7,774 bases of DNA from Candidatus Woesearchaeota archaeon. Its GTDB lineage: Archaea > Nanobdellota > Nanobdellia > Nanobdellales > CAZNIQ01. Numbering within the stretch: position 1 is the first letter of the stretch; each line of letters opens with the position of its first letter. The notes under the pieces were generated by a model that saw nothing but the letters and a program-made list of their open reading frames with translations, was not told the origin of the DNA and searched no databases. Shown one piece after another: positions 1-7,774 of the stretch. Location: positions 5,887-13,660 of the forward strand of contig CAZNIQ010000019.1 of the NCBI GenBank assembly GCA_964573185.1, written 5' to 3'. The position numbers were made by a program, and so were the translations under genes.

Positions 1-1121
1 TTTAAAATATACTTCTCATATTGCAACATTGCTGGGCAAAAGTAACAGCCTATTCGTTCTATACCTAAATCATATAATGGATTATATGGTATTCTTCTGT
101 AAAAAATATATAACCACAATTCTAAGCCATTCCAATCTAAAATGGGAAATACTTGATAAGCATTAGGAATAAAGGGGTTTTTTCTAAAGTATGGGTACTT
201 TGCTCTTGAATAACTTTCATATTTCCTTACCCCTTCAAAAGATAGTACTTCTTTATATTTTTTAAGATATTCTTTTAAAGGATTTAACTTTAAAAATTCT
301 GTACACCATCTATTATCTTTTGTTGGAAATCCTCTTTTCTTTACTTCTTCCCAGAAATCTCCTTTAGGTTTTAAGATCGTAATATTCTTTCCTATAAATT
401 TTTCAAAAGTTCTAACAAATTCTATTGTTTCTTCATGTTCAAATCCAGTATCTATAAAGATTATTTCATCAACGTAATCTTTAGATAGATAAGAAACTAC
501 TGTAGAATCTTTTCCTCCAGAAAAAGCAGCAAATCTGAATTCACCAAAATCTTTATACTTTTCTATTAATTCTATAGCTTTACTTTCAATATTTTCTAAA
601 TGTCCTTTATTAACTTTTATCCAATCCTTTAGAGTACTTTTAGGTAATTTTTCAAACTGATGTCTTATAGCATCTATTACTTTTATCTTATTTCCAAGGT
701 TCTTAGCAACACCGTATGATCTGGAATTCTCATCATAGAAAGTAAAATACTCTTTGTCAATATTTGCTTTTATATCAAATTTCTTTCCTTTAATTCTTCT
801 TTTGGGAAGTTTTAAGATAATATCTGGTTCAACTAAGGAAGCTAAAGCTGCAGAGGGTATAAACTTCAATTTTCCATCAAAGAAAAGTTTACCCAAAAGA
901 ATTCCATCCGCATAAAGCTTACAAGCCCAGTCAGTATACGGAAATCTTGAAATTACAATAGGACTATTTGGAGAATATCTATATTCTCTTAGTATTTCTT
1001 TTATTCTCTTCTCCTCTTCTTTCAACACTATTCTAACATCTATTTCAATAGGAATTAAATCGTATCCTTTAGAACCATCTAGTATTGGAGCATTAGTATA
1101 TTTATCCCACTTGATGTACAT
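1..1121 (-). CDS. PP-loop ATP pyrophosphatase / PAPS-reductase-family protein with ~195-aa N-terminal extension; partial, C-terminus runs off the left edge
   Basis: Missing from the supplied track because there is no stop inside the window. I translated the reverse strand from the ATG (complement of 1119-1121), which is preceded in frame by a TAA (1122-1124). I checked every in-frame triplet down to position 3 and found no stop (373 codons). The translation contains the PP-loop FRFAAFSGGKDST (SGGKDS = nt 504-521), DNRWCTEFLKLNPL, and GCYFCP near the edge. These are hallmark blocks of the PAPS reductase / PP-loop family. Confidence 0.85.
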   Translation of the reverse strand, partial: MYIKWDKYTNAPILDGSKGYDLIPIEIDVRIVLKEEEKRIKEILREYRYSPNSPIVISRFPYTDWACKLYADGILLGKLFFDGKLKFIPSAALASLVEPDIILKLPKRRIKGKKFDIKANIDKEYFTFYDENSRSYGVAKNLGNKIKVIDAIRHQFEKLPKSTLKDWIKVNKGHLENIESKAIELIEKYKDFGEFRFAAFSGGKDSTVVSYLSKDYVDEIIFIDTGFEHEETIEFVRTFEKFIGKNITILKPKGDFWEEVKKRGFPTKDNRWCTEFLKLNPLKEYLKKYKEVLSFEGVRKYESYSRAKYPYFRKNPFIPNAYQVFPILDWNGLELWLYIFYRRIPYNPLYDLGIERIGCYFCPAMLQYEKYIL

Positions 1122-1128
1122 TTAAAAA
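1121..1128 (+). promoter_or_regulatory. TATA-like box (TTTAAAAA) positioned for a leaderless pcm transcript
   Basis: TTTAAAAA is centred ~24-25 nt upstream of the ATG at 1149, which is the archaeal TATA-to-TSS spacing. It overlaps the start codon of the divergent gene. AT-rich background makes chance matches likely. Confidence 0.3.
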
Positions 1129-1148
1129 AGAGAGTTCTAAAGATTATT

Positions 1149-1811
1149 ATGTACTTTGGATCTAATGATGAATTAGTAGATTACTTAAAAGAATTAGGAT
1201 TTATAAGGTCTAAAAGAGTTGAACAAGCTTTTAGAGCAGTAGATCGTAAGGATTTTGTTCCTGATGAATACAAGGAAATGGCTTATTTTGATAAAGTAAT
1301 TCCTATCGGTTATGGTCAAACAACATCTCAGCCATCTTTAATAGCCCAAATGCTAGAAGAATTAGATATAAAACCCGGAATGAAAGTTTTAGAAATAGGA
1401 ACTGGTTCTGGATATGTTACTGCTTTATTATCCTATTTGGTTGGTCCTGAAGGAAAAGTTATTTCTATAGAAAGAATACCTGAATTAGCTGAATTTGCTA
1501 AGAGAAATTTATCTAAATATCCTTTTACAAAAAATGTCGAGATTATTGTTGGAGATGGTACATTAGGATATCCAAAAGAAGCCCCTTACGATAGAATATA
1601 TGTTGGAGCTGCCGCCCCAGAAATTCCAAAACCGTTATTATGGCAATTAAAGGAAAATGGGATAATGATAATTCCAGTAGGTCCAGAATATGGACAAACT
1701 CTATATAAAATTATAAAGAAAAAAGATAAAATTGAAAAAATACCGATAGAGGATGTTATTTTTGTTCCTTTAATTGGGAAATATGGATATGATGAAGAGG
1801 AATGGAAATGA
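1149..1811 (+). CDS. pcm: protein-L-isoaspartate (D-aspartate) O-methyltransferase
   Basis: ATG at 1149, TGA at 1809-1811, 220 aa. Canonical PIMT blocks are present: GYGQTTSQPSLIAQMLE, the SAM motif VLEIGTGSGYVTALL, DRIYVGAAAPEIP, and MIIPVG...FVPL. Confidence 0.95.
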   Translation: MYFGSNDELVDYLKELGFIRSKRVEQAFRAVDRKDFVPDEYKEMAYFDKVIPIGYGQTTSQPSLIAQMLEELDIKPGMKVLEIGTGSGYVTALLSYLVGPEGKVISIERIPELAEFAKRNLSKYPFTKNVEIIVGDGTLGYPKEAPYDRIYVGAAAPEIPKPLLWQLKENGIMIIPVGPEYGQTLYKIIKKKDKIEKIPIEDVIFVPLIGKYGYDEEEWK

Positions 1812-2933
1812 TTATAGTAGCTCTATTTTTGGTATTCTCCTCTCTTTTTCTTCTTTAAACCTCTCTAACTGTTCTTCTAGTACTTCTAAAGCATTTCTTA
1901 AAGCATTATATAATTCCCAACCTTCATCTTGTGCATAAAACCTTCCTTTCTCGGAGAACAATCTTATTCTTACAGTATAAAATCTCATTGTATTATCCTG
2001 CTCAACTACTTCTTTTACTCTCTTAATATAAACATAAACTTGAATGTAATTTCCTAATATGCTCTTAAATCTTCTTATTATTTTTCTTTCAATAACGGTC
2101 CTTATCCATTCTTTATCGATTTCGTCCAACACTATATTTACTGGGTGTATTATTATTTCAACTTCTTTCTTTTTCTCAAAGGCTATTTCCTCTAAAATAT
2201 CTTTTCTAGTAATGATACCAACCAAATTGTCATTCTCGTCAACAACAGGTAAACCAGAGATATTCTTTTCTAACATTATTTCAATCGCTTTTTTAACAGG
2301 CTCATCATATCTTATTGTTATAACTGGAGAAGTCATTATTCCCTCCACGGGTAATGCTAATGAAGGATAATGTTCAGATCTTTCCCCAAACTCCGGTTTT
2401 TCTTTTGGATAAACTAATTTTTCAATTATATCTCTTGCAGTAATAATTCCTACAACCTTTTTACCCTCAACAATTGGTATTCTAGATATGTGCTTCTTTC
2501 TCATAATGCTAATAGCTTTTGCAACCTTCGCTTTTGGTGGTAAAGTAATAACATCCTCAACCATCAAATCCGCAACTAAAAGTTTAATTTTGTCTTTATA
2601 TAACTCTAACAGTTTTGAAGAGTTTACTATGCCCTCTATTTTTTCTTCAGTTCCTATAGGTACTATTCTTGATCCGGATTCTATCATTTTCTTAGCAATT
2701 CTTACCGGATTTACTTCTTTTTCTGGATGCAATCTGATAGTGATTTTCTCTACTTTCATTTCTGGATCCATTCTAGTTCTTATTATTGTTTTTTCATTAG
2801 CAACCCCATAATATTTTCCTTTATCCAAAACAACAACTCCTTCTATATATGGATCCTCTCTAAATATTCCTACTAATTTGGATATAGTTTCGTCCTTTTC
2901 TATGGTAGGATAATTCCTAATTACGATATCCAT
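1812..2933 (-). CDS. four-CBS-domain protein with a non-CBS C-terminal domain (HPF/RaiA-like)
   Basis: ATG is the complement of 2931-2933 and TAA the complement of 1812-1814; 373 aa. Four CBS repeats lie at about aa 1-56, 58-114, 118-173 and 194-252. Examples are RIPIVEGKKVVGIITARDIIEKL and GLPVVDENDNLVGIITRKDILEEI. A distinct C-terminal domain spans aa 257-373. Confidence 0.9.
   Translation of the reverse strand: MDIVIRNYPTIEKDETISKLVGIFREDPYIEGVVVLDKGKYYGVANEKTIIRTRMDPEMKVEKITIRLHPEKEVNPVRIAKKMIESGSRIVPIGTEEKIEGIVNSSKLLELYKDKIKLLVADLMVEDVITLPPKAKVAKAISIMRKKHISRIPIVEGKKVVGIITARDIIEKLVYPKEKPEFGERSEHYPSLALPVEGIMTSPVITIRYDEPVKKAIEIMLEKNISGLPVVDENDNLVGIITRKDILEEIAFEKKKEVEIIIHPVNIVLDEIDKEWIRTVIERKIIRRFKSILGNYIQVYVYIKRVKEVVEQDNTMRFYTVRIRLFSEKGRFYAQDEGWELYNALRNALEVLEEQLERFKEEKERRIPKIELL
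1815..2165 (-). other. C-terminal domain resembling the HPF/RaiA (ribosomal S30AE / sigma-54 modulation protein) fold
   Basis: The sequence is VEIIIHPVNIVLDEIDKEWIRTVIERKIIRRFKSILGNYIQVYVYIKRVKE...FYTVRIRLFSEKGRFYAQDEGWELYNALRNALEVLEEQLERFKEEK. It parallels E. coli HPF as I remember it: LNITGNNVEITEALREFVTAKFAKLEQYFDRINQVYVVLKVEK...[38 protein letters not shown]. This is a pattern match by eye only. Confidence 0.5.
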
Positions 2934-3376: not shown

Positions 3377-4027
3377 TTAACTCTTAGTTTTACCGAATTC
3401 CTTTTCAGCCTCTTTTCTTAAGAGATCTCTTAACATTTCTAATATTGGTTTCTTCTCCTCTTTAGGTTTCTCAGGTTGTGATAACCACCAAATTATTGCT
3501 ATGAAGAATATCACAATTACTAGCATTGTTTGTACTGCAGGATCTTGAAGGTACTTGAATAGAACATCTAAAATACTTGCTGCTTCTTTTACCTCTTGAA
3601 CTTTGCTTTGGAACTTTAGGTAATAAAAACCTATAGCAAATATCGCTAACAAAGATAATGTAGGTATCCAAGCAGACCCTTGCCTAGCTCTTTCACCATA
3701 TATCAAACCACCTAAAATTAATATACCTAGATAAGCTATCATTAAGTAAAATACCAAGGAATACAAATCGGTAATATACCCTACCACAAATTCTAAAGCG
3801 TTTGCAAAGACGAATAATGCAAAGGCTAAAACTACTGTAATTAAACCCTTCAATTTTCTCTCTTTTGGAAAATCAATTCTATCTAATATTCCGTAAATAA
3901 CTGCTAAAGTTAGTAATACTGATGGAACAACTGTAAAGAAGCCCAAGGACTGTAGTGTCTGGAAAGCTTGTACTAATGTATTTGAAGACCCTATAGTATT
4001 TATCGTATTTACTATTTCTGCCGTCAT
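3377..4027 (-). CDS. multi-pass membrane protein, paralog C of a tandem family (WWLSQPEK motif plus charged amphipathic tail)
   Basis: The track lists 3377-4042 (221 aa), but the codon at 4042-4040 is TTG. The first ATG is at 4027-4025 (216 aa: MTAEIVNT...). It overlaps the upstream TGA as ATGA and has GGTGG 8 nt upstream. Either start is possible. The protein has N-terminal LGFFTVVPSVLLTLAVIYGILDR, several TM helices, and a last helix ending IIWWLSQPEKPKEEKK. Confidence 0.8.
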   Translation of the reverse strand: MTAEIVNTINTIGSSNTLVQAFQTLQSLGFFTVVPSVLLTLAVIYGILDRIDFPKERKLKGLITVVLAFALFVFANALEFVVGYITDLYSLVFYLMIAYLGILILGGLIYGERARQGSAWIPTLSLLAIFAIGFYYLKFQSKVQEVKEAASILDVLFKYLQDPAVQTMLVIVIFFIAIIWWLSQPEKPKEEKKPILEMLRDLLRKEAEKEFGKTKS

Positions 4028-4458
4028 TTTGACAACCACCAAATTAATATTAAGAACGTTCCCATCATAACAACCAATACTAGAACTCCGGGATCAATAG
4101 TAATACCTCCTACATTTGTTCCTTTTGGCAATAATGGTGCTATAAATAAGTAAGCTACAATAACTACGGATGCGAAGAATACTAGTGCTTTCAAAGCATC
4201 ACTTTTTACTCCCGGAAATATCAGTCCTGCTGCAATTATTAAAGCTAATAAAGTCAGTACATACATTGACATTTCGGGAATAGCATAAGAGAGCCACTGC
4301 CCTATATCTGTTCTTCCAAAAGCAAATAAAGCTATAGAAATTGCAATTAGCTTATTTACTTTTTCATTTTTGAAAATTCCAGATTGTTTTACAAGTACAT
4401 ATGATAATGTAAAGGCTAATAGTGATATGAAGAATTGATAAATAATGTTGACCTCCAT
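4024..4458 (-). CDS. multi-pass membrane protein, paralog B of the tandem family (ends LILIWWLSK)
   Basis: ATG is the complement of 4456-4458, 1 nt after the upstream TAA; 144 aa. It shares KLIAISIALFAFG with paralog A's SLVALSIALIAVG, and shares the terminal WWLSK. Confidence 0.8.
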   Translation of the reverse strand: MEVNIIYQFFISLLAFTLSYVLVKQSGIFKNEKVNKLIAISIALFAFGRTDIGQWLSYAIPEMSMYVLTLLALIIAAGLIFPGVKSDALKALVFFASVVIVAYLFIAPLLPKGTNVGGITIDPGVLVLVVMMGTFLILIWWLSK

Positions 4459-4459
4459 T

Positions 4460-5017
4460 TTAAGAACTTTGCTGTTGCTTTTTTTGTTCTTTTTTCTCAG
4501 GCTTGGTTAACCACCATACTACTATAAAGAATATTCCTAACATTACAAATCCAACTATCATCTCTAAAAGCTCTTGCGGTATAGAACCTACAGAAGAACC
4601 TACTGCACTGGGATTAAAGAAACCTAAAACATATAATAACCATAAGAATACTGCTGCAGCAGTTCCACCGCCTAATAAAGCTTTCCATCTTTTAGACATT
4701 TTCATTAATTCTTCATAAGATACTCCTCCGGTAAAACCAGCAACCATTATTATCCCAAAAATCGTTACAACAACTAATCCTATATATGGTAATATTATTT
4801 GTAATAATCTTAATATTTGATAAGAGCCTACTGCTATTAAAGCTATAGAAAGTGCTACTAGAGATGATAATTTTGTATCAACCTCCTTCCCTTTCTTAAA
4901 GAATTGTAATCTTATTAGAATTCCGTAAACTAAAGCCCAGATAAGTAATAAAGGAAGAAATATGTCAAAAAACCCAATATTTCTTAATACTTCAAGTATA
5001 GTTTCAAATGCTGACAT
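4460..5017 (-). CDS. multi-pass membrane protein, paralog A of the tandem family (about 5 TM helices, ends VVWWLTKPEKKEQKKQQQSS)
   Basis: ATG is the complement of 5015-5017; 185 aa. It has N-terminal IGFFDIFLPLLLIWALVYGILIR and five hydrophobic helices. The positive-inside rule suggests N-out/C-in topology. Confidence 0.85.
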   Translation of the reverse strand: MSAFETILEVLRNIGFFDIFLPLLLIWALVYGILIRLQFFKKGKEVDTKLSSLVALSIALIAVGSYQILRLLQIILPYIGLVVVTIFGIIMVAGFTGGVSYEELMKMSKRWKALLGGGTAAAVFLWLLYVLGFFNPSAVGSSVGSIPQELLEMIVGFVMLGIFFIVVWWLTKPEKKEQKKQQQSS

Positions 5018-5028
5018 TAGAATTATGA

Positions 5029-5036
5029 TTTATAAA
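5029..5036 (+). promoter_or_regulatory. TATA box TTTATAAA for leaderless trm5-like transcript
   Basis: It is centred ~29 nt upstream of the ATG at 5062, inside a 44-nt divergent spacer. No Shine-Dalgarno-like sequence lies between it and the ATG. Confidence 0.45.
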
Positions 5037-5040
5037 TCTC

Positions 5041-5048
5041 AATTTAAA
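5041..5048 (-). promoter_or_regulatory. TATA-like box (TTTAAATT on the minus strand) for the membrane-paralog gene string
   Basis: It is centred ~27 nt upstream of the minus-strand ATG at 5017. It lies beyond the + strand TATA, so the two divergent promoters cross. Confidence 0.4.
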
Positions 5049-5061
5049 GGTTCGTTAAACA

Positions 5062-6120
5062 ATGACGTTTGACATCATAGGGGATATAGCAATAATTAAA
5101 ATGAATACACCTGGGGATCCTTTAGAATTAGCTAAAAAAATTCTTGAAAAACATAAGCACGTTAAAACAGTGTTACTTCAGGTATCTAAAGTAGATATTC
5201 CATTTAGAGTTCCAAAATATAAATATCTTTTAGGAGAAAAGAAAACAGAGACTATACATAAAGAATTTGGTTTAAGATTTAAAGTAGATGTTACAAAATG
5301 CTATTATTCGCCAAGATTGGAAAATGAAAGAATGAGAATTGCTAAGCAGGTTAAAGAAAATGAAGAAGTTTTAGTAATGTTTTCCGGGGTAAATCCTTAT
5401 CCTATTTATATAGCTAAATTTGCAAAACCCAAAATAGTATACTCTATAGAAATTAATCCTTTTGCTGTGAGATATGGATTAGAAAATGAGAAATTAAATA
5501 AAGTAGATGATAAAATAAAAACCATATTAGGAGACGTAAGAGATGCTGTTCCTTTATTGGGTTTTCTTGATGATAAAGATGGAGTGGTATTTACAGAAGA
5601 ATGGTACCTTAAAGACGTTTTAGAATCAGGTTTAAAGCTAAACAAATTGGTTTTAAAAATAACAAATCCTGATCTTCTAGATTTAGCTTTCGAAATACCT
5701 TCAAAAGAGAAATATCTTTTAGTGAAGAAGGATATTAGACTTACTGATCTGGGAGAATATATATATAAAGCGGATGGAATAATAAAAGAGACAGAGAACT
5801 CATATATGATTGTGGATAAGAATAAAAATGTCTCTGAAGTAAAGAAATTTGAAAAGAAATTTGATAGAATTGTTATGCCTTTACCAAAGGAAGCAGATAC
5901 CTTTTTAGATGTAGCTATTCCAGTAATAAAAAATAATGGAATAATTCATTTATATCAATTCTTAAGAGAAGAGGAAATAGATAAAAAACCAAAAGATATT
6001 TTAGATTATTATTCAAAAAAACTTGGGTTTAAATACAAGATACTAAATGTTGTTAAATGTGGCGATATTGCGCCAAGGACATATAGAGTTTGTATAGACT
6101 TCCAAGTATATAAGGGATAG
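5062..6120 (+). CDS. trm5: Trm5-family (Met-10+ / TYW2-like) tRNA (guanine37-N1)-methyltransferase, D1-less, with a large internal insertion
   Basis: ATG at 5062, TAG at 6118-6120, 352 aa. It starts directly with the D2-domain motif FDIIGDIAII. Further blocks are FKVDVTKCYYSPRLENERMRIA, the SAM motif EVLVMFSGVNPYPIYIA, VYSIEINPFA, GDVRD, then DRIVMPLPKEADTFLDVA...GIIHLYQF. I cannot fully resolve Trm5 from Taw2/Taw22 subfamilies. SPRL..ER and the xLPK motif favour Trm5. Confidence 0.85.
   Translation: MTFDIIGDIAIIKMNTPGDPLELAKKILEKHKHVKTVLLQVSKVDIPFRVPKYKYLLGEKKTETIHKEFGLRFKVDVTKCYYSPRLENERMRIAKQVKENEEVLVMFSGVNPYPIYIAKFAKPKIVYSIEINPFAVRYGLENEKLNKVDDKIKTILGDVRDAVPLLGFLDDKDGVVFTEEWYLKDVLESGLKLNKLVLKITNPDLLDLAFEIPSKEKYLLVKKDIRLTDLGEYIYKADGIIKETENSYMIVDKNKNVSEVKKFEKKFDRIVMPLPKEADTFLDVAIPVIKNNGIIHLYQFLREEEIDKKPKDILDYYSKKLGFKYKILNVVKCGDIAPRTYRVCIDFQVYKG
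5551..5859 (+). other. about 100-aa lineage-specific insertion inside the Trm5 class-I methyltransferase domain
   Basis: GDVRDAVP (aa 157-164) and FDRIVMPLP (aa 267-275) are separated by ~100 aa (LLGFLDDKDGVVFTEEWYLKDVLESGLKLNKLVLKITNPD...VSEVKKFEKK). In the Trm5/Taw2 sequences I remember, these two blocks are only ~10-20 aa apart. Confidence 0.6.
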
Positions 6121-6245: not shown

Positions 6246-6314
6246 ATGAAATCCCTCAGAAAGGTAGGAGCCTTGTCAGCAGTGGGTGTATTAACTGTAG
6301 GTACAACTTTTGCA
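6246..6314 (+). other. Sec-type signal peptide of the S-layer precursor
   Basis: The basic n-region is MKSLRK and the hydrophobic core is VGALSAVGVLTVG. There is a small-residue site at TFA|L. The exact cleavage site is not determinable by eye. Confidence 0.5.
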
Positions 6315-7774
6315 TTAACCTTTGACGCATGGAAAGCAAAATTACCAGAAAAAGCACAATATTACAAAATAGTAGTAGGTGAGAAAGCAGCAGCAGCAGA
6401 TGTAATAGGTGCTGTAGAATTAGCTGCAGCATTACAACAAGTTTCTGTAAAAGAAAAGAACGTATCTGTACCAGTAGAAGGGGTTGTTTTGGAGAAAACA
6501 ACTGTAAAGTATGCTGGGGAAGTTCCATTATATAAGGAAACAGCAAAATTATACTTAGAAGATAGCATCTCAAAAGTCAAACCGAAGATAAATTATGAAA
6601 CTGGGGTAGTAGAAGGAGACAATGATAAATACAAATATAGAGTTGAATTATGGCCAGGTAACCAAGCTATAATAACATTTGAAGACAAACCAGACACAGA
6701 TGAAAAAGATCCTGTTGTAATGATAAAAGGTGGTACTAATGGTGATCAACCAATATTTACCGTAAAAGTAAAATTTGAAACAGGATCTTACCTCAACTTA
6801 ACTGATGCCAAAGGCGAGGAGATAAAAATATTAGGAAAGACATTTTACTTGGATCAAGATGATGATGGAAATGTTGTATTAAGATCTGCAGCCTTAAAAG
6901 TAACATTAAATGCTGGAGAATCTACAGAATTTGAAGGAAAAACAATAAAATTATTAGATATTGTAAAACAGGGCAGTACCTATTATGTAAAGGTATCTGT
7001 AGATGGCAAAACGGCAACAATAAAGGTTGGAGATGACGATGAAGTTAATGGGATTTATATATATGTTAAAGGAGCATATGTATCTGAATTAGAAGAAGGT
7101 AAAGGTTATGCAGAATTAGTATTGGGAGGTAAAAAAGTAGTACTAAAAGATGGAGATGGAATTGAAGTAAATGGAGAATTAGATAAAAGAATAATACCAA
7201 AAATTGACAAGGATTCTAATGGTAAGATAAAAGAAATAGATTTCGATGTCTATGTATCAGATGATTCTGACAAAAACTATATAGAGGCGGGAAAAGAGTT
7301 TACTCCAGTATTGTTTGATACAATAAAGTTAGTATTTGCACCTGTAGATTTAAAGACTGGACAAAAAGTAGAATTAATACCATCTGGAGACAAAGAATAT
7401 AGGTTAAAAATAGTTGACTGGAGAGGAAAGAGCAAGACGTTGACAATCGCCAAATTAGGAAGCAATGGCAATGTAACTATGCTAGAAGATACAGATAAAG
7501 TAGTTGGAACAATAATAGATGTAGGCGGTGATGTTAGTACAGCAGCAAATAGATTTGCTGTGGATGAAAAAGAGTATTTTGCAGTATTTGACGAACAAAC
7601 AAAAGAATCCTACTTATATGAAGTTGAAGATATAAGTATAGATACAGATAACAATAAGGCTACTGTAACCCTAAAAGATGTGATTTCCGGCGATACTGTA
7701 AAGTTAGAAGACATTCCATATGGAGACGGAAGTCGTACAGAAACTTGGGATGTAGGACACTTTGTGTTTAAAGT
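6246..7774 (+). CDS. S-layer (surface layer) protein precursor, N-terminal 509 codons; continues beyond the right edge
   Basis: Missing from the track because there is no stop in the window. I read it from the ATG at 6246 to 7774 without a stop. It begins with the signal peptide MKSLRKVGALSAVGVLTVGTTFA. That is followed by YYKIVVGEKAAAADVIGAVELAAAL, the VVVG..AA..DV.GA..IAAAL signature of the Methanococcales/Thermococcales-type S-layer N-terminal domain. Beta-rich D/E/K/G/V repeats follow (KILGKTFYLDQDDDGNVVL, AELVLGGKKVVLKDGDGIEVNG). Purine-rich codon usage is consistent with the other genes. Confidence 0.8.
   Translation, partial: MKSLRKVGALSAVGVLTVGTTFALTFDAWKAKLPEKAQYYKIVVGEKAAAADVIGAVELAAALQQVSVKEKNVSVPVEGVVLEKTTVKYAGEVPLYKETAKLYLEDSISKVKPKINYETGVVEGDNDKYKYRVELWPGNQAIITFEDKPDTDEKDPVVMIKGGTNGDQPIFTVKVKFETGSYLNLTDAKGEEIKILGKTFYLDQDDDGNVVLRSAALKVTLNAGESTEFEGKTIKLLDIVKQGSTYYVKVSVDGKTATIKVGDDDEVNGIYIYVKGAYVSELEEGKGYAELVLGGKKVVLKDGDGIEVNGELDKRIIPKIDKDSNGKIKEIDFDVYVSDDSDKNYIEAGKEFTPVLFDTIKLVFAPVDLKTGQKVELIPSGDKEYRLKIVDWRGKSKTLTIAKLGSNGNVTMLEDTDKVVGTIIDVGGDVSTAANRFAVDEKEYFAVFDEQTKESYLYEVEDISIDTDNNKATVTLKDVISGDTVKLEDIPYGDGSRTETWDVGHFVFK

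Follow-up and report, generated by a model that had tools for sequence, protein, structure and literature searches.

In the Sulfolobus bindosome assembly system, the BasE ATPase and the BasF platform protein go together with BasABC, three pilin-like proteins that each have a class III signal peptide and a single N-terminal helix. Archaeal type IV pilins and archaellins have a class III signal with a short basic leader and a [KR]-G/A cleavage site, a single N-terminal helix and a C-terminal domain that lies outside the membrane. The accessory proteins of archaeal type-IV-filament systems (FlaC/D/E, FlaF/G and FlaX of the archaellum, and the additional proteins of type IV pili, PMC4858521) are small membrane or coiled-coil proteins found beside a T2SSE-family ATPase and a platform, and several paralogues stand side by side in these systems. 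Some subclades of type IV pili pair the ATPase with proteins of unknown origin that have four to five transmembrane (TM) segments, and for nanoarchaeal secretion ATPases neither cognate pilins nor a prepilin peptidase can be identified (both PMC4858521). Another relevant description is that of Module 98 (Castelle et al. 2021, PMC8204110), a group of 51 protein families, mostly unknown and often membrane-bound, that are restricted to Pacearchaeota and Woesearchaeota. Here we describe three consecutive genes, A, B and C (the triplet), located at 3377-5017 of a 7,774-nucleotide stretch of DNA from Candidatus Woesearchaeota archaeon (assembly GCA_964573185.1, contig CAZNIQ010000019.1, positions 5,887 to 13,660 of the forward strand), which is referred to below as the window. 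We found that the triplet belongs to a large membrane protein family almost confined to archaea of the DPANN group, that in most loci this family occurs as a tandem of three diverged members, and that in relatives it usually lies upstream of a secretion ATPase.

The triplet and its conserved endings are arranged as follows (aa, amino acids).

4460-5017, minus strand: gene A, 185 aa; N-terminal amphipathic helix, Gly, TM1 (FFDIFLPLLLIWALVYGIL) and four further helices
4493-4516, minus strand: DNA for WWLTKPEK of A (TGGTGGTTAACCAAGCCTGAGAAA), found by motif scan
4024-4458, minus strand: gene B, 144 aa; shorter and more divergent than A and C, with WWLSK directly at the stop codon
4024-4041, minus strand: DNA for WWLSK and the stop codon of B; includes the ATGA overlap with the start of C
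3377-4027, minus strand: gene C, 216 aa from ATG; with a TTG at 4042 as the start it would have 221 aa (3377-4042)
3467-3490, minus strand: DNA for WWLSQPEK of C (TGGTGGTTATCACAACCTGAGAAA), found by motif scan

The open reading frames (ORFs) thus lie where an earlier note on this DNA, made without database searches, had placed three consecutive minus-strand genes of 185, 144 and 216/221 aa, and the tight coupling that it read there holds as well: the TAA stop of A is separated from the ATG of B by a single nucleotide, and the TGA of B overlaps the ATG of C (ATGA, 4024-4027). Because of this overlap, 216 aa is the likelier length of C. The GGTGG formed by the two Trp codons of B sits 9 nucleotides upstream of the ATG of C and looks like a Shine-Dalgarno site, so it may act as one.

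A, B and C are paralogous. In BLASTP comparisons, A and B share 31% identity over 127 aa (E=1e-9), A and C share 41% over 44 aa of the N-terminal part only (E=1e-6), and B and C share 43% over 23 aa of the C-terminal part only (E=0.007); profile matches and five predicted helices agree with the earlier description of paralogous multi-pass membrane proteins. As to motifs, which had been described as common to all three proteins, this proved right for the WWL ending, invariant in the three-way alignment (W168, W169, L170) with the common form WWL(S/T)(K/Q). The GFF...YGIL..R motif is present in A and C and lacking in B, and the (L/I)(I/V)A(L/I)SIAL motif is present in A and B and lacking in C. 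Protein A ends with WWLTKPEK followed by a Lys-rich tail, and protein C with WWLSQPEK followed by a charged amphipathic tail. The TM1 pattern reads G-FFDIFLPLLLIW in A and, in a degraded version, G-FFTVVPSVLLTL in C; protein C also has a longer N-terminus, a GFFTVVPSVLLTLAVIYGIL TM1, and DPAVQ before the last helix. Protein B has neither the N-terminal amphipathic helix nor the LPxLL motif of TM1. At the DNA level, the window has two matches to the motif TGGTGGTTA-N6-CCTGAGAAA, at 3467-3490 and 4493-4516 and nowhere else, and 0 of 200 shuffles match it; the conservation noticed earlier is therefore confirmed, with the copy in A starting at 4493 and not at 4496.

The first search, a word-indexed homologue search with A, returned A itself, a protein 69% identical to it and one fragment; a profile of six paralogues, used in the second step, reached two distant proteins, at loci L004 and L007. 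The third step was an exhaustive hidden Markov model (HMM) search with an eight-sequence profile against representatives of 50%-identity clusters, and it revealed a family of 2,450 cluster representatives at E<=1e-3 (1,020 at E<=1e-10), nearly all of which are matched over their full length and measure 160-225 aa. Canonical members carry an amphipathic helix at the N-terminus, followed by a near-invariant Gly and then D(V/I)xLPFLL(I/V)F(T/A)xVFAILEKT(K/R)IFG; their last helix ends with W(F/W)(I/V)T and is followed by a charged tail. A and C (185 and 216 aa) fall within the typical length range and B (144 aa) lies below it.

We then scanned one genome per GTDB species, using a 12-sequence canonical alignment as the query, and confirmed at least 571 family loci in species-representative genomes. 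The labels and the ATPase counts given below concern the best 80 of these at least 571 loci, ranked by match to a single query. Almost all of the 80 are labelled Woesearchaeota, Pacearchaeota, Nanoarchaeota or Nanoarchaeia, the complete genome GW2011_AR20 being among them; a few third-party annotation records bear the unverified label 'Methanosarcinales'. In this sample, the family is almost confined to DPANN archaea (Woesearchaeota, Pacearchaeota, Nanoarchaeota).

The earlier note did not recognise the family, and neither did the databases. In the source annotation, the members are called 'hypothetical protein' only, in metagenome-assembled genomes of Candidatus Woesearchaeota or similar organisms. 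No model of Pfam, NCBIfam, PADLOC or PHROGs reached its threshold with A, B, C or D (the latter being the gene that follows C), no Pfam or NCBIfam model did so with 65 family members or with members from distant loci, and a sequence search of the PDB with the family profile gave a best E=0.05, to an unrelated protein. The Pfam and NCBIfam matches of A, B and C all lie under the curated cut-offs (e.g. 16.2 vs 24.4 bits, and 20.5 vs 33 bits). Sub-threshold matches to DUF2070, Acyl_transf_3, YajC, RseC/MucC and ABZJ_00895 were rejected as compositional hydrophobic noise, as they cover helical stretches of similar length only; among the 65 members such hits differ from one protein to another, with DUF2070 in 9/65, Acyl_transf_3 in 6/65 and no family above 9. 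We found no published description of the family motifs, the three subfamilies, the tandem arrangement or the ATPase synteny in the literature, the supplementary tables of PMC8204110 being outside the scope of this search. The family shares with those of Module 98 its taxonomic range, its membrane location and its uncharacterised state, and it is probably included, as an unnamed cluster, in the count that Castelle et al. 2021 made of such families. It is a real and large family without a curated description, that is, a gap in Pfam and NCBIfam coverage.

The tandem arrangement was assessed by running the family HMM over every ORF of 88 sources (87 fetched loci and the window). As gene 1 of each locus was found by construction, it is genes 2 and 3 that are independent detections. 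Exactly three co-directional, tightly packed members were found in 78/88 sources and four in 1/88 (L031, 5872-8489, plus strand), while the 9/88 sources with one or two members are all cut by a contig end. Three in tandem are present in the window and in its closest relative, L001, and likewise in the distant loci L004 and L007. It needs to be mentioned that L088, fetched later, has two tandem members only (8001-9090, plus strand; one subfamily-1/2-like and one of subfamily 3), and thus three members are a rule and not a law; a 170-aa gene upstream of this pair was considered as a third family member and rejected. Homologues in related genomes are therefore triplicated as a rule, a point that the earlier note had proposed to check, and its idea of a local triplication gives way to that of a lineage-wide set. 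Judging from this distribution, the tandem set is ancient.

The three tandem positions correspond to distinct subfamilies with their own signatures. Positions 1 and 2 retain the LPFLL helix; an external loop with PHxTGxY, a DDPxxQ motif and an amphipathic tail at the C-terminus are further features of position 2. At position 3, neither the N-terminal helix nor LPF is present, and its marks are an invariant PW in helix 3, HPKVLG before the last helix, and a variable, Ser/Thr/Gly-rich external loop. When the window proteins were scored with hhalign against subfamily profiles free of window sequences, A was closest to subfamily 1 (profile A7, E=3.2e-19 over 177 columns) and C to subfamily 2 (profile A8, E=1e-12 over 171 columns, tail included); in sequence terms, the longer N-terminus, the TM1, the DPAVQ, the tail and the ending of C are subfamily-2 features. 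B also scored best against subfamily 2 (5e-9), while its N-terminal half resembles subfamily 3, whose canonical members likewise lack both the N-terminal helix and the TM1 motif; for a two-sequence profile of B and its L001 counterpart P0004, the values were 1.8e-10 (subfamily 2), 7.6e-7 (subfamily 1) and 1.6e-6 (subfamily 3). As A resembles subfamily 1, and B and C resemble subfamily 2, the window set is a diverged version of the canonical trio, in which B and C may both be derived from subfamily 2. One cluster, P0110, holds a 365-aa ORF in which a subfamily-1 protein runs into a subfamily-2 protein. We did not accept it as evidence of interaction, since it is a single cluster and C-terminally truncated; more probably it has lost a stop codon than arisen by true fusion, because five-helix units with the N-terminus out and the C-terminus in would not fit together in this way.

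Five membrane helices preceded by an N-terminal amphipathic helix are indicated by hydropathy and by the AlphaFold2 model of A alike (mean pLDDT, the predicted local distance difference test score, 81.4; helices 2-13, 16-37, 48-63, 66-96, 101-130 and 148-171). The net charges of the loops are +3 after TM1, +2 after TM3, -2 between TM4 and TM5 and +3 in the C-terminal tail, and by the positive-inside rule they would place the N-terminus outside and the C-terminus inside. Hydropathy, modelled helices and loop charges read from the sequence are mutually consistent. Foldseek comparisons of the A model gave a best E=5.5 with TM-score <=0.22 against the PDB, and a best E=1.0 against BFVD. Conservation in the family falls on Pro, Gly, Phe and Leu and, at the membrane boundaries, on Lys; no buried charges or catalytic-looking residues are found among the conserved positions.

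Set against the systems named at the outset, the triplet shows likeness in arrangement and difference in sequence. A, B and C do not fit the description of pilins and archaellins: no class III signal was found, and there are five hydrophobic helices instead of one. Their N-termini are acidic or neutral, with Lys-rich loops after TM1. PF00482-type platform repeats (T2SSF/TadC/FlaJ) match neither A, B and C nor the 65 family members, and VirB2/TrbC (PF04956) gives E=0.98 with C (10.1 bits vs a cut-off of 27.9 bits) and is a hairpin of about 100 aa unlike five helices. The bindosome resembles the loci of relatives in the joint encoding of three related membrane proteins of small size, in the T2SSE-type ATPase and platform, and in the lack of an obvious pilus; the five helices and the missing class III signal separate A, B and C from BasABC, and homology was not detected. 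With the accessory proteins of type-IV filaments, the triplet has in common the small size, the several paralogues side by side and, in relatives, the kind of neighbours. It differs from them in showing no sequence or fold similarity, in lying outside the ATPase operon, and in that the window lineage has no ATPase neighbour. The likeness would thus be of a 'works-with' kind, by analogy, and we do not claim membership.

The neighbours in question were found downstream of the triplet in other lineages, where two convergently oriented coiled-coil genes are followed by an ATPase gene on the triplet strand. These ATPases are about 750-780 aa long, match Pfam T2SSE at 1e-10 to 1e-16, and are 51-66% identical to one another. 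We searched every fetched locus with two motifs back-translated from the ATPase; 43/80 genome loci contain motif 1 and 7 more contain motif 2, on the same strand, and every match lies 3.8-6.3 kilobases (kb) downstream of gene 1. As 19 of the 80 loci are too short to tell, the ATPase is found downstream of the triplet in at least 50 of 61 informative loci. In the inspected loci the larger coiled-coil protein has about 180-240 aa (312 aa in L004) and the smaller one about 125-177 aa; examples of the pair, all on the minus strand, are L020 7678-8662, L004 4712-6547 and L090 9840-10984. In L088 and L090, the two loci whose next gene could be read to its end, the ATPase is followed by a polytopic protein of about 700-740 aa, which by its layout would be platform-like. 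Genes upstream of the triplet vary between groups of loci, with Hef, an unknown gene and a TraB-like gene in some, and translin, TnpB or others elsewhere. That the downstream block is kept while the upstream genes change argues for more than inherited gene order.

Several observations on these neighbours stand on their own. The larger coiled-coil protein opens with a small helical domain, which gives a weak UBA match in the L090 copy and matches to RepB_primase_C and RecX_HTH2 in the L004 copy, and the smaller one carries a conserved NFARK motif in L020 and L004; no family could be assigned to either protein. In L029 (Nanoarchaeota archaeon SCGC AAA011-G17), the T2SSE ATPase beside the triplet (8666-12430, plus strand) reaches 1,254 aa because of an intein with a LAGLIDADG homing-endonuclease domain. 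In L004, a metagenomic contig, an IS605 OrfB/TnpB (Cas12f-like) gene lies directly upstream of the triplet (747-1844, plus strand).

The reading that we prefer, with a rough probability of 0.35, is that the triplet encodes a heteromeric membrane scaffold which serves a type-IV-filament-like envelope machine as an accessory module, be it as anchor, stator or scaffold, its link to the partners being drawn from the neighbourhood just described. In this mechanism, A, B and C would be three non-identical subunits of one integral-membrane hetero-oligomer, each of them a five-helix bundle with the N-terminus out and the C-terminus in. The extracellular amphipathic helix would lead through the invariant Gly into TM1 with its LPFLL motif, and the Lys-rich tail would be cytoplasmic. 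The hetero-oligomer would act together with the ~760-aa T2SSE ATPase, the two coiled-coil proteins and the ~700-aa platform-like protein.

A hetero-oligomeric complex had already been suggested by the earlier note, and the idea gains much strength from distant genomes, where members of three distinct subfamilies stand in tandem; that such distinct subfamilies are kept in small genomes speaks for non-redundant subunits. Physical assembly would be the most economical reading of this gene arrangement. A scaffold is likelier than an enzyme or an ion-coupled transporter, because there are no buried charges and no catalytic-looking conserved residues, and an accessory role in a type-IV-filament-like machine is our best guess because the ATPase, coiled-coil and platform-like neighbours recur.

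On the other hand, a number of findings weigh against this proposal. Neither ATPase motif is present in the window, L001 or L007, and no comparable ATPase was found in the 7.8-kb window or, for L001, within +/-10 kb, so the ATPase link would be a lead provided by relatives and not by the window itself. L001 does encode a PIN-T2SSE-KH ATPase, which we considered as a counterpart of the ~760-aa protein and rejected, as it differs in architecture and contains neither of the two motifs. A nearby ATPase is also missing from L007 and from about 10 of the 61 informative loci. The triplet lies outside the ATPase operon, and the coiled-coil genes are convergent with it. The ~700-aa polytopic protein has no Pfam match, T2SSF included. 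The synteny might be partly inherited gene order, because the best 80 loci are a related subset. As for the trio itself, the window holds no clear subfamily-3 orthologue, B and C both scoring best against subfamily 2, and L088 has its two members only.

Some of these findings speak for another explanation, in which the triplet would be a self-contained membrane device unconnected with the ATPase, such as a channel or facilitator, or a complex for lipid handling or membrane homeostasis, the ATPase neighbourhood being gene order inherited within Woesearchaeota. The triplet stands without a nearby ATPase in the window, L001 and L007, and it would be transcribed apart from the ATPase, given the convergent coiled-coil genes in between. 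That small genomes retain it so widely, almost universally, agrees with a housekeeping function in the membrane. Organisms of the DPANN type are thought to scavenge host lipids, which makes lipid handling plausible. We consider this explanation possible but doubtful, because the invariant residues are P, G, F, L and K, with no conserved charged or polar residues inside the membrane for ion or solute coupling, because no likeness to any transporter family or fold was detected, and because the ATPase block is retained downstream while the upstream neighbours change.

A stronger version of the proposed accessory scaffold would make the tandem set the core membrane part of an unrecognised DPANN-specific envelope machine, namely a heteromeric ring or conduit driven by the ~760-aa ATPase and the platform protein. 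We regard this version as unlikely. If it were true, such a machine, without identifiable pilins or prepilin peptidase, could mediate host attachment or exchange of material.

The remaining explanations require the neighbours of the triplet in the window, which is AT-rich (GC content 0.27-0.36) and contains no tRNA or Rfam elements.

1-1119, minus strand: PP-loop ORF (FSGGKDS), running off the left end; PAPS-reductase or ATP-pyrophosphatase-like by appearance, from the motif alone
1149-1811, plus strand: protein-L-isoaspartate methyltransferase
1812-2933, minus strand: CBS-domain protein with an HPF/S30AE-like C-terminus, 373 aa
2956-3339, minus strand: gene D, 127 aa; two to three hydrophobic helices and a charged coiled-coil tail
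5018-5061, no strand: divergent intergenic region of 44 bp between A and the Trm5/Taw-like gene; AT-rich, with TTTAAATT and TTTATAAA resembling TATA boxes
5062-6120, plus strand: Trm5/Taw-type tRNA methyltransferase, 352 aa
from about 6246 to 7774, plus strand: S-layer-like ORF that continues beyond the right end; its N-terminus resembles a signal peptide

The intergenic region at 5018-5061 is likely the promoter region of an A-B-C transcript, a putative assignment based on its TATA-like boxes. The S-layer-like ORF passes the Pfam S_layer_C model marginally (26.3 bits vs a cut-off of 23.9).

The closest relative, L001, is a 49-kb NCBI contig of GCA_054017035.1 with the triplet at 10001-11709 and the same order, Trm5-A-B-C-D-CBS, as in the window, and with PIN-domain genes in place of the window's S-layer gene. 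Between the window and L001, the flanking proteins are 88% (Trm5), 92% (CBS protein) and 88% (D) identical, while identity is 69-70% for A, 71% for B (P0004) and 66% for C (P0006). A, B and C thus evolve faster than their neighbours, which suits envelope-exposed or partner-co-evolving proteins and is not diagnostic of either.

It was the S-layer gene that had led the earlier note to suggest a role in S-layer anchoring or spacing, or in a host-contact structure, and some features do agree with this: the S-layer-like ORF begins about 1.2 kb away from the triplet in the window, the N-terminal amphipathic helix and the loop between TM4 and TM5 would, by prediction, lie on the outer side, the external loops of subfamily 3 are rich in Ser/Thr/Gly, and an identity of 66-71% against 88-92% for the neighbours is often seen in surface-exposed proteins. 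We find a tie to this gene quite unlikely, since the adjacency is gone even in L001 and in every other inspected locus, the S-layer gene lies on the opposite strand past an unrelated tRNA methyltransferase gene, and A, B and C expose very little outside the cell. The linkage to the CBS gene, expected together with that to the S-layer gene, is kept in L001 and absent from the other inspected loci. Finally, it is very improbable that A, B and C are themselves the missing non-canonical filament or conduit subunits of an orphan DPANN secretion ATPase, in place of pilins with class III signals: although the ATPase synteny, the nanoarchaeal ATPases without identifiable pilins or prepilin peptidase (PMC4858521), the invariant Gly ahead of a strongly conserved hydrophobic helix, and weak sub-threshold matches of 3/65 members to the VirB2-like 'pilin-like conjugal transfer protein' NF045849 (best E=5e-5) would agree with it, the proteins have five hydrophobic helices and lack both a basic leader and a [KR]G cleavage context, TM1 is oriented opposite to that of pilins by the positive-inside rule, the archaellin/pilin N-terminal model TIGR02537 matches C only, under cut-off (E=0.13), and the window lineage has A, B and C with no adjacent ATPase.

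Gene D, which the earlier note had proposed to model together with the triplet, starts 37 nucleotides downstream of C, past a T-run and a TATA-like box, and has no Pfam or NCBIfam match. Among 5.8 billion proteins, its homologues are the L001 copy (88% identical) and just one other (50%); D is thus lineage-specific, it does not belong to the triplet family, and we rejected it as part of a conserved module.

Two further proteins of the window deserve mention in their own right. The 373-aa CBS protein has three passing CBS stretches (Pfam, E=3e-44) and a C-terminus that matches Ribosomal_S30AE with 28.3 bits vs a cut-off of 23.7; this unusual fusion of CBS and S30AE suggests ligand-sensing control of ribosome hibernation. 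In the Trm5/Taw-type protein, the methyltransferase domain is matched in two separate stretches, therefore an insertion of about 100 aa after residue ~162 is indicated, and a 348-aa gene resembling it lies close to the triplet-family locus of L088.

DPANN archaea, whose genomes are tiny, live attached to hosts, their lineage-specific genes encode mostly unannotated membrane or surface proteins, and we know of no described apparatus that joins these cells to their hosts. The presence of the family in hundreds of species-level genomes, the fixed tandem of diverged paralogues and the usual neighbour, an ATPase of the secretion type with no known substrate filament, are the marks of a component of some structure or process that is indispensable to the cells. 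The triplet is thus a candidate for the envelope and host-contact biology of DPANN archaea, and one that comes with subfamily profiles, a topology model and a predicted set of partners, namely the two coiled-coil proteins, the ATPase and the platform-like protein.

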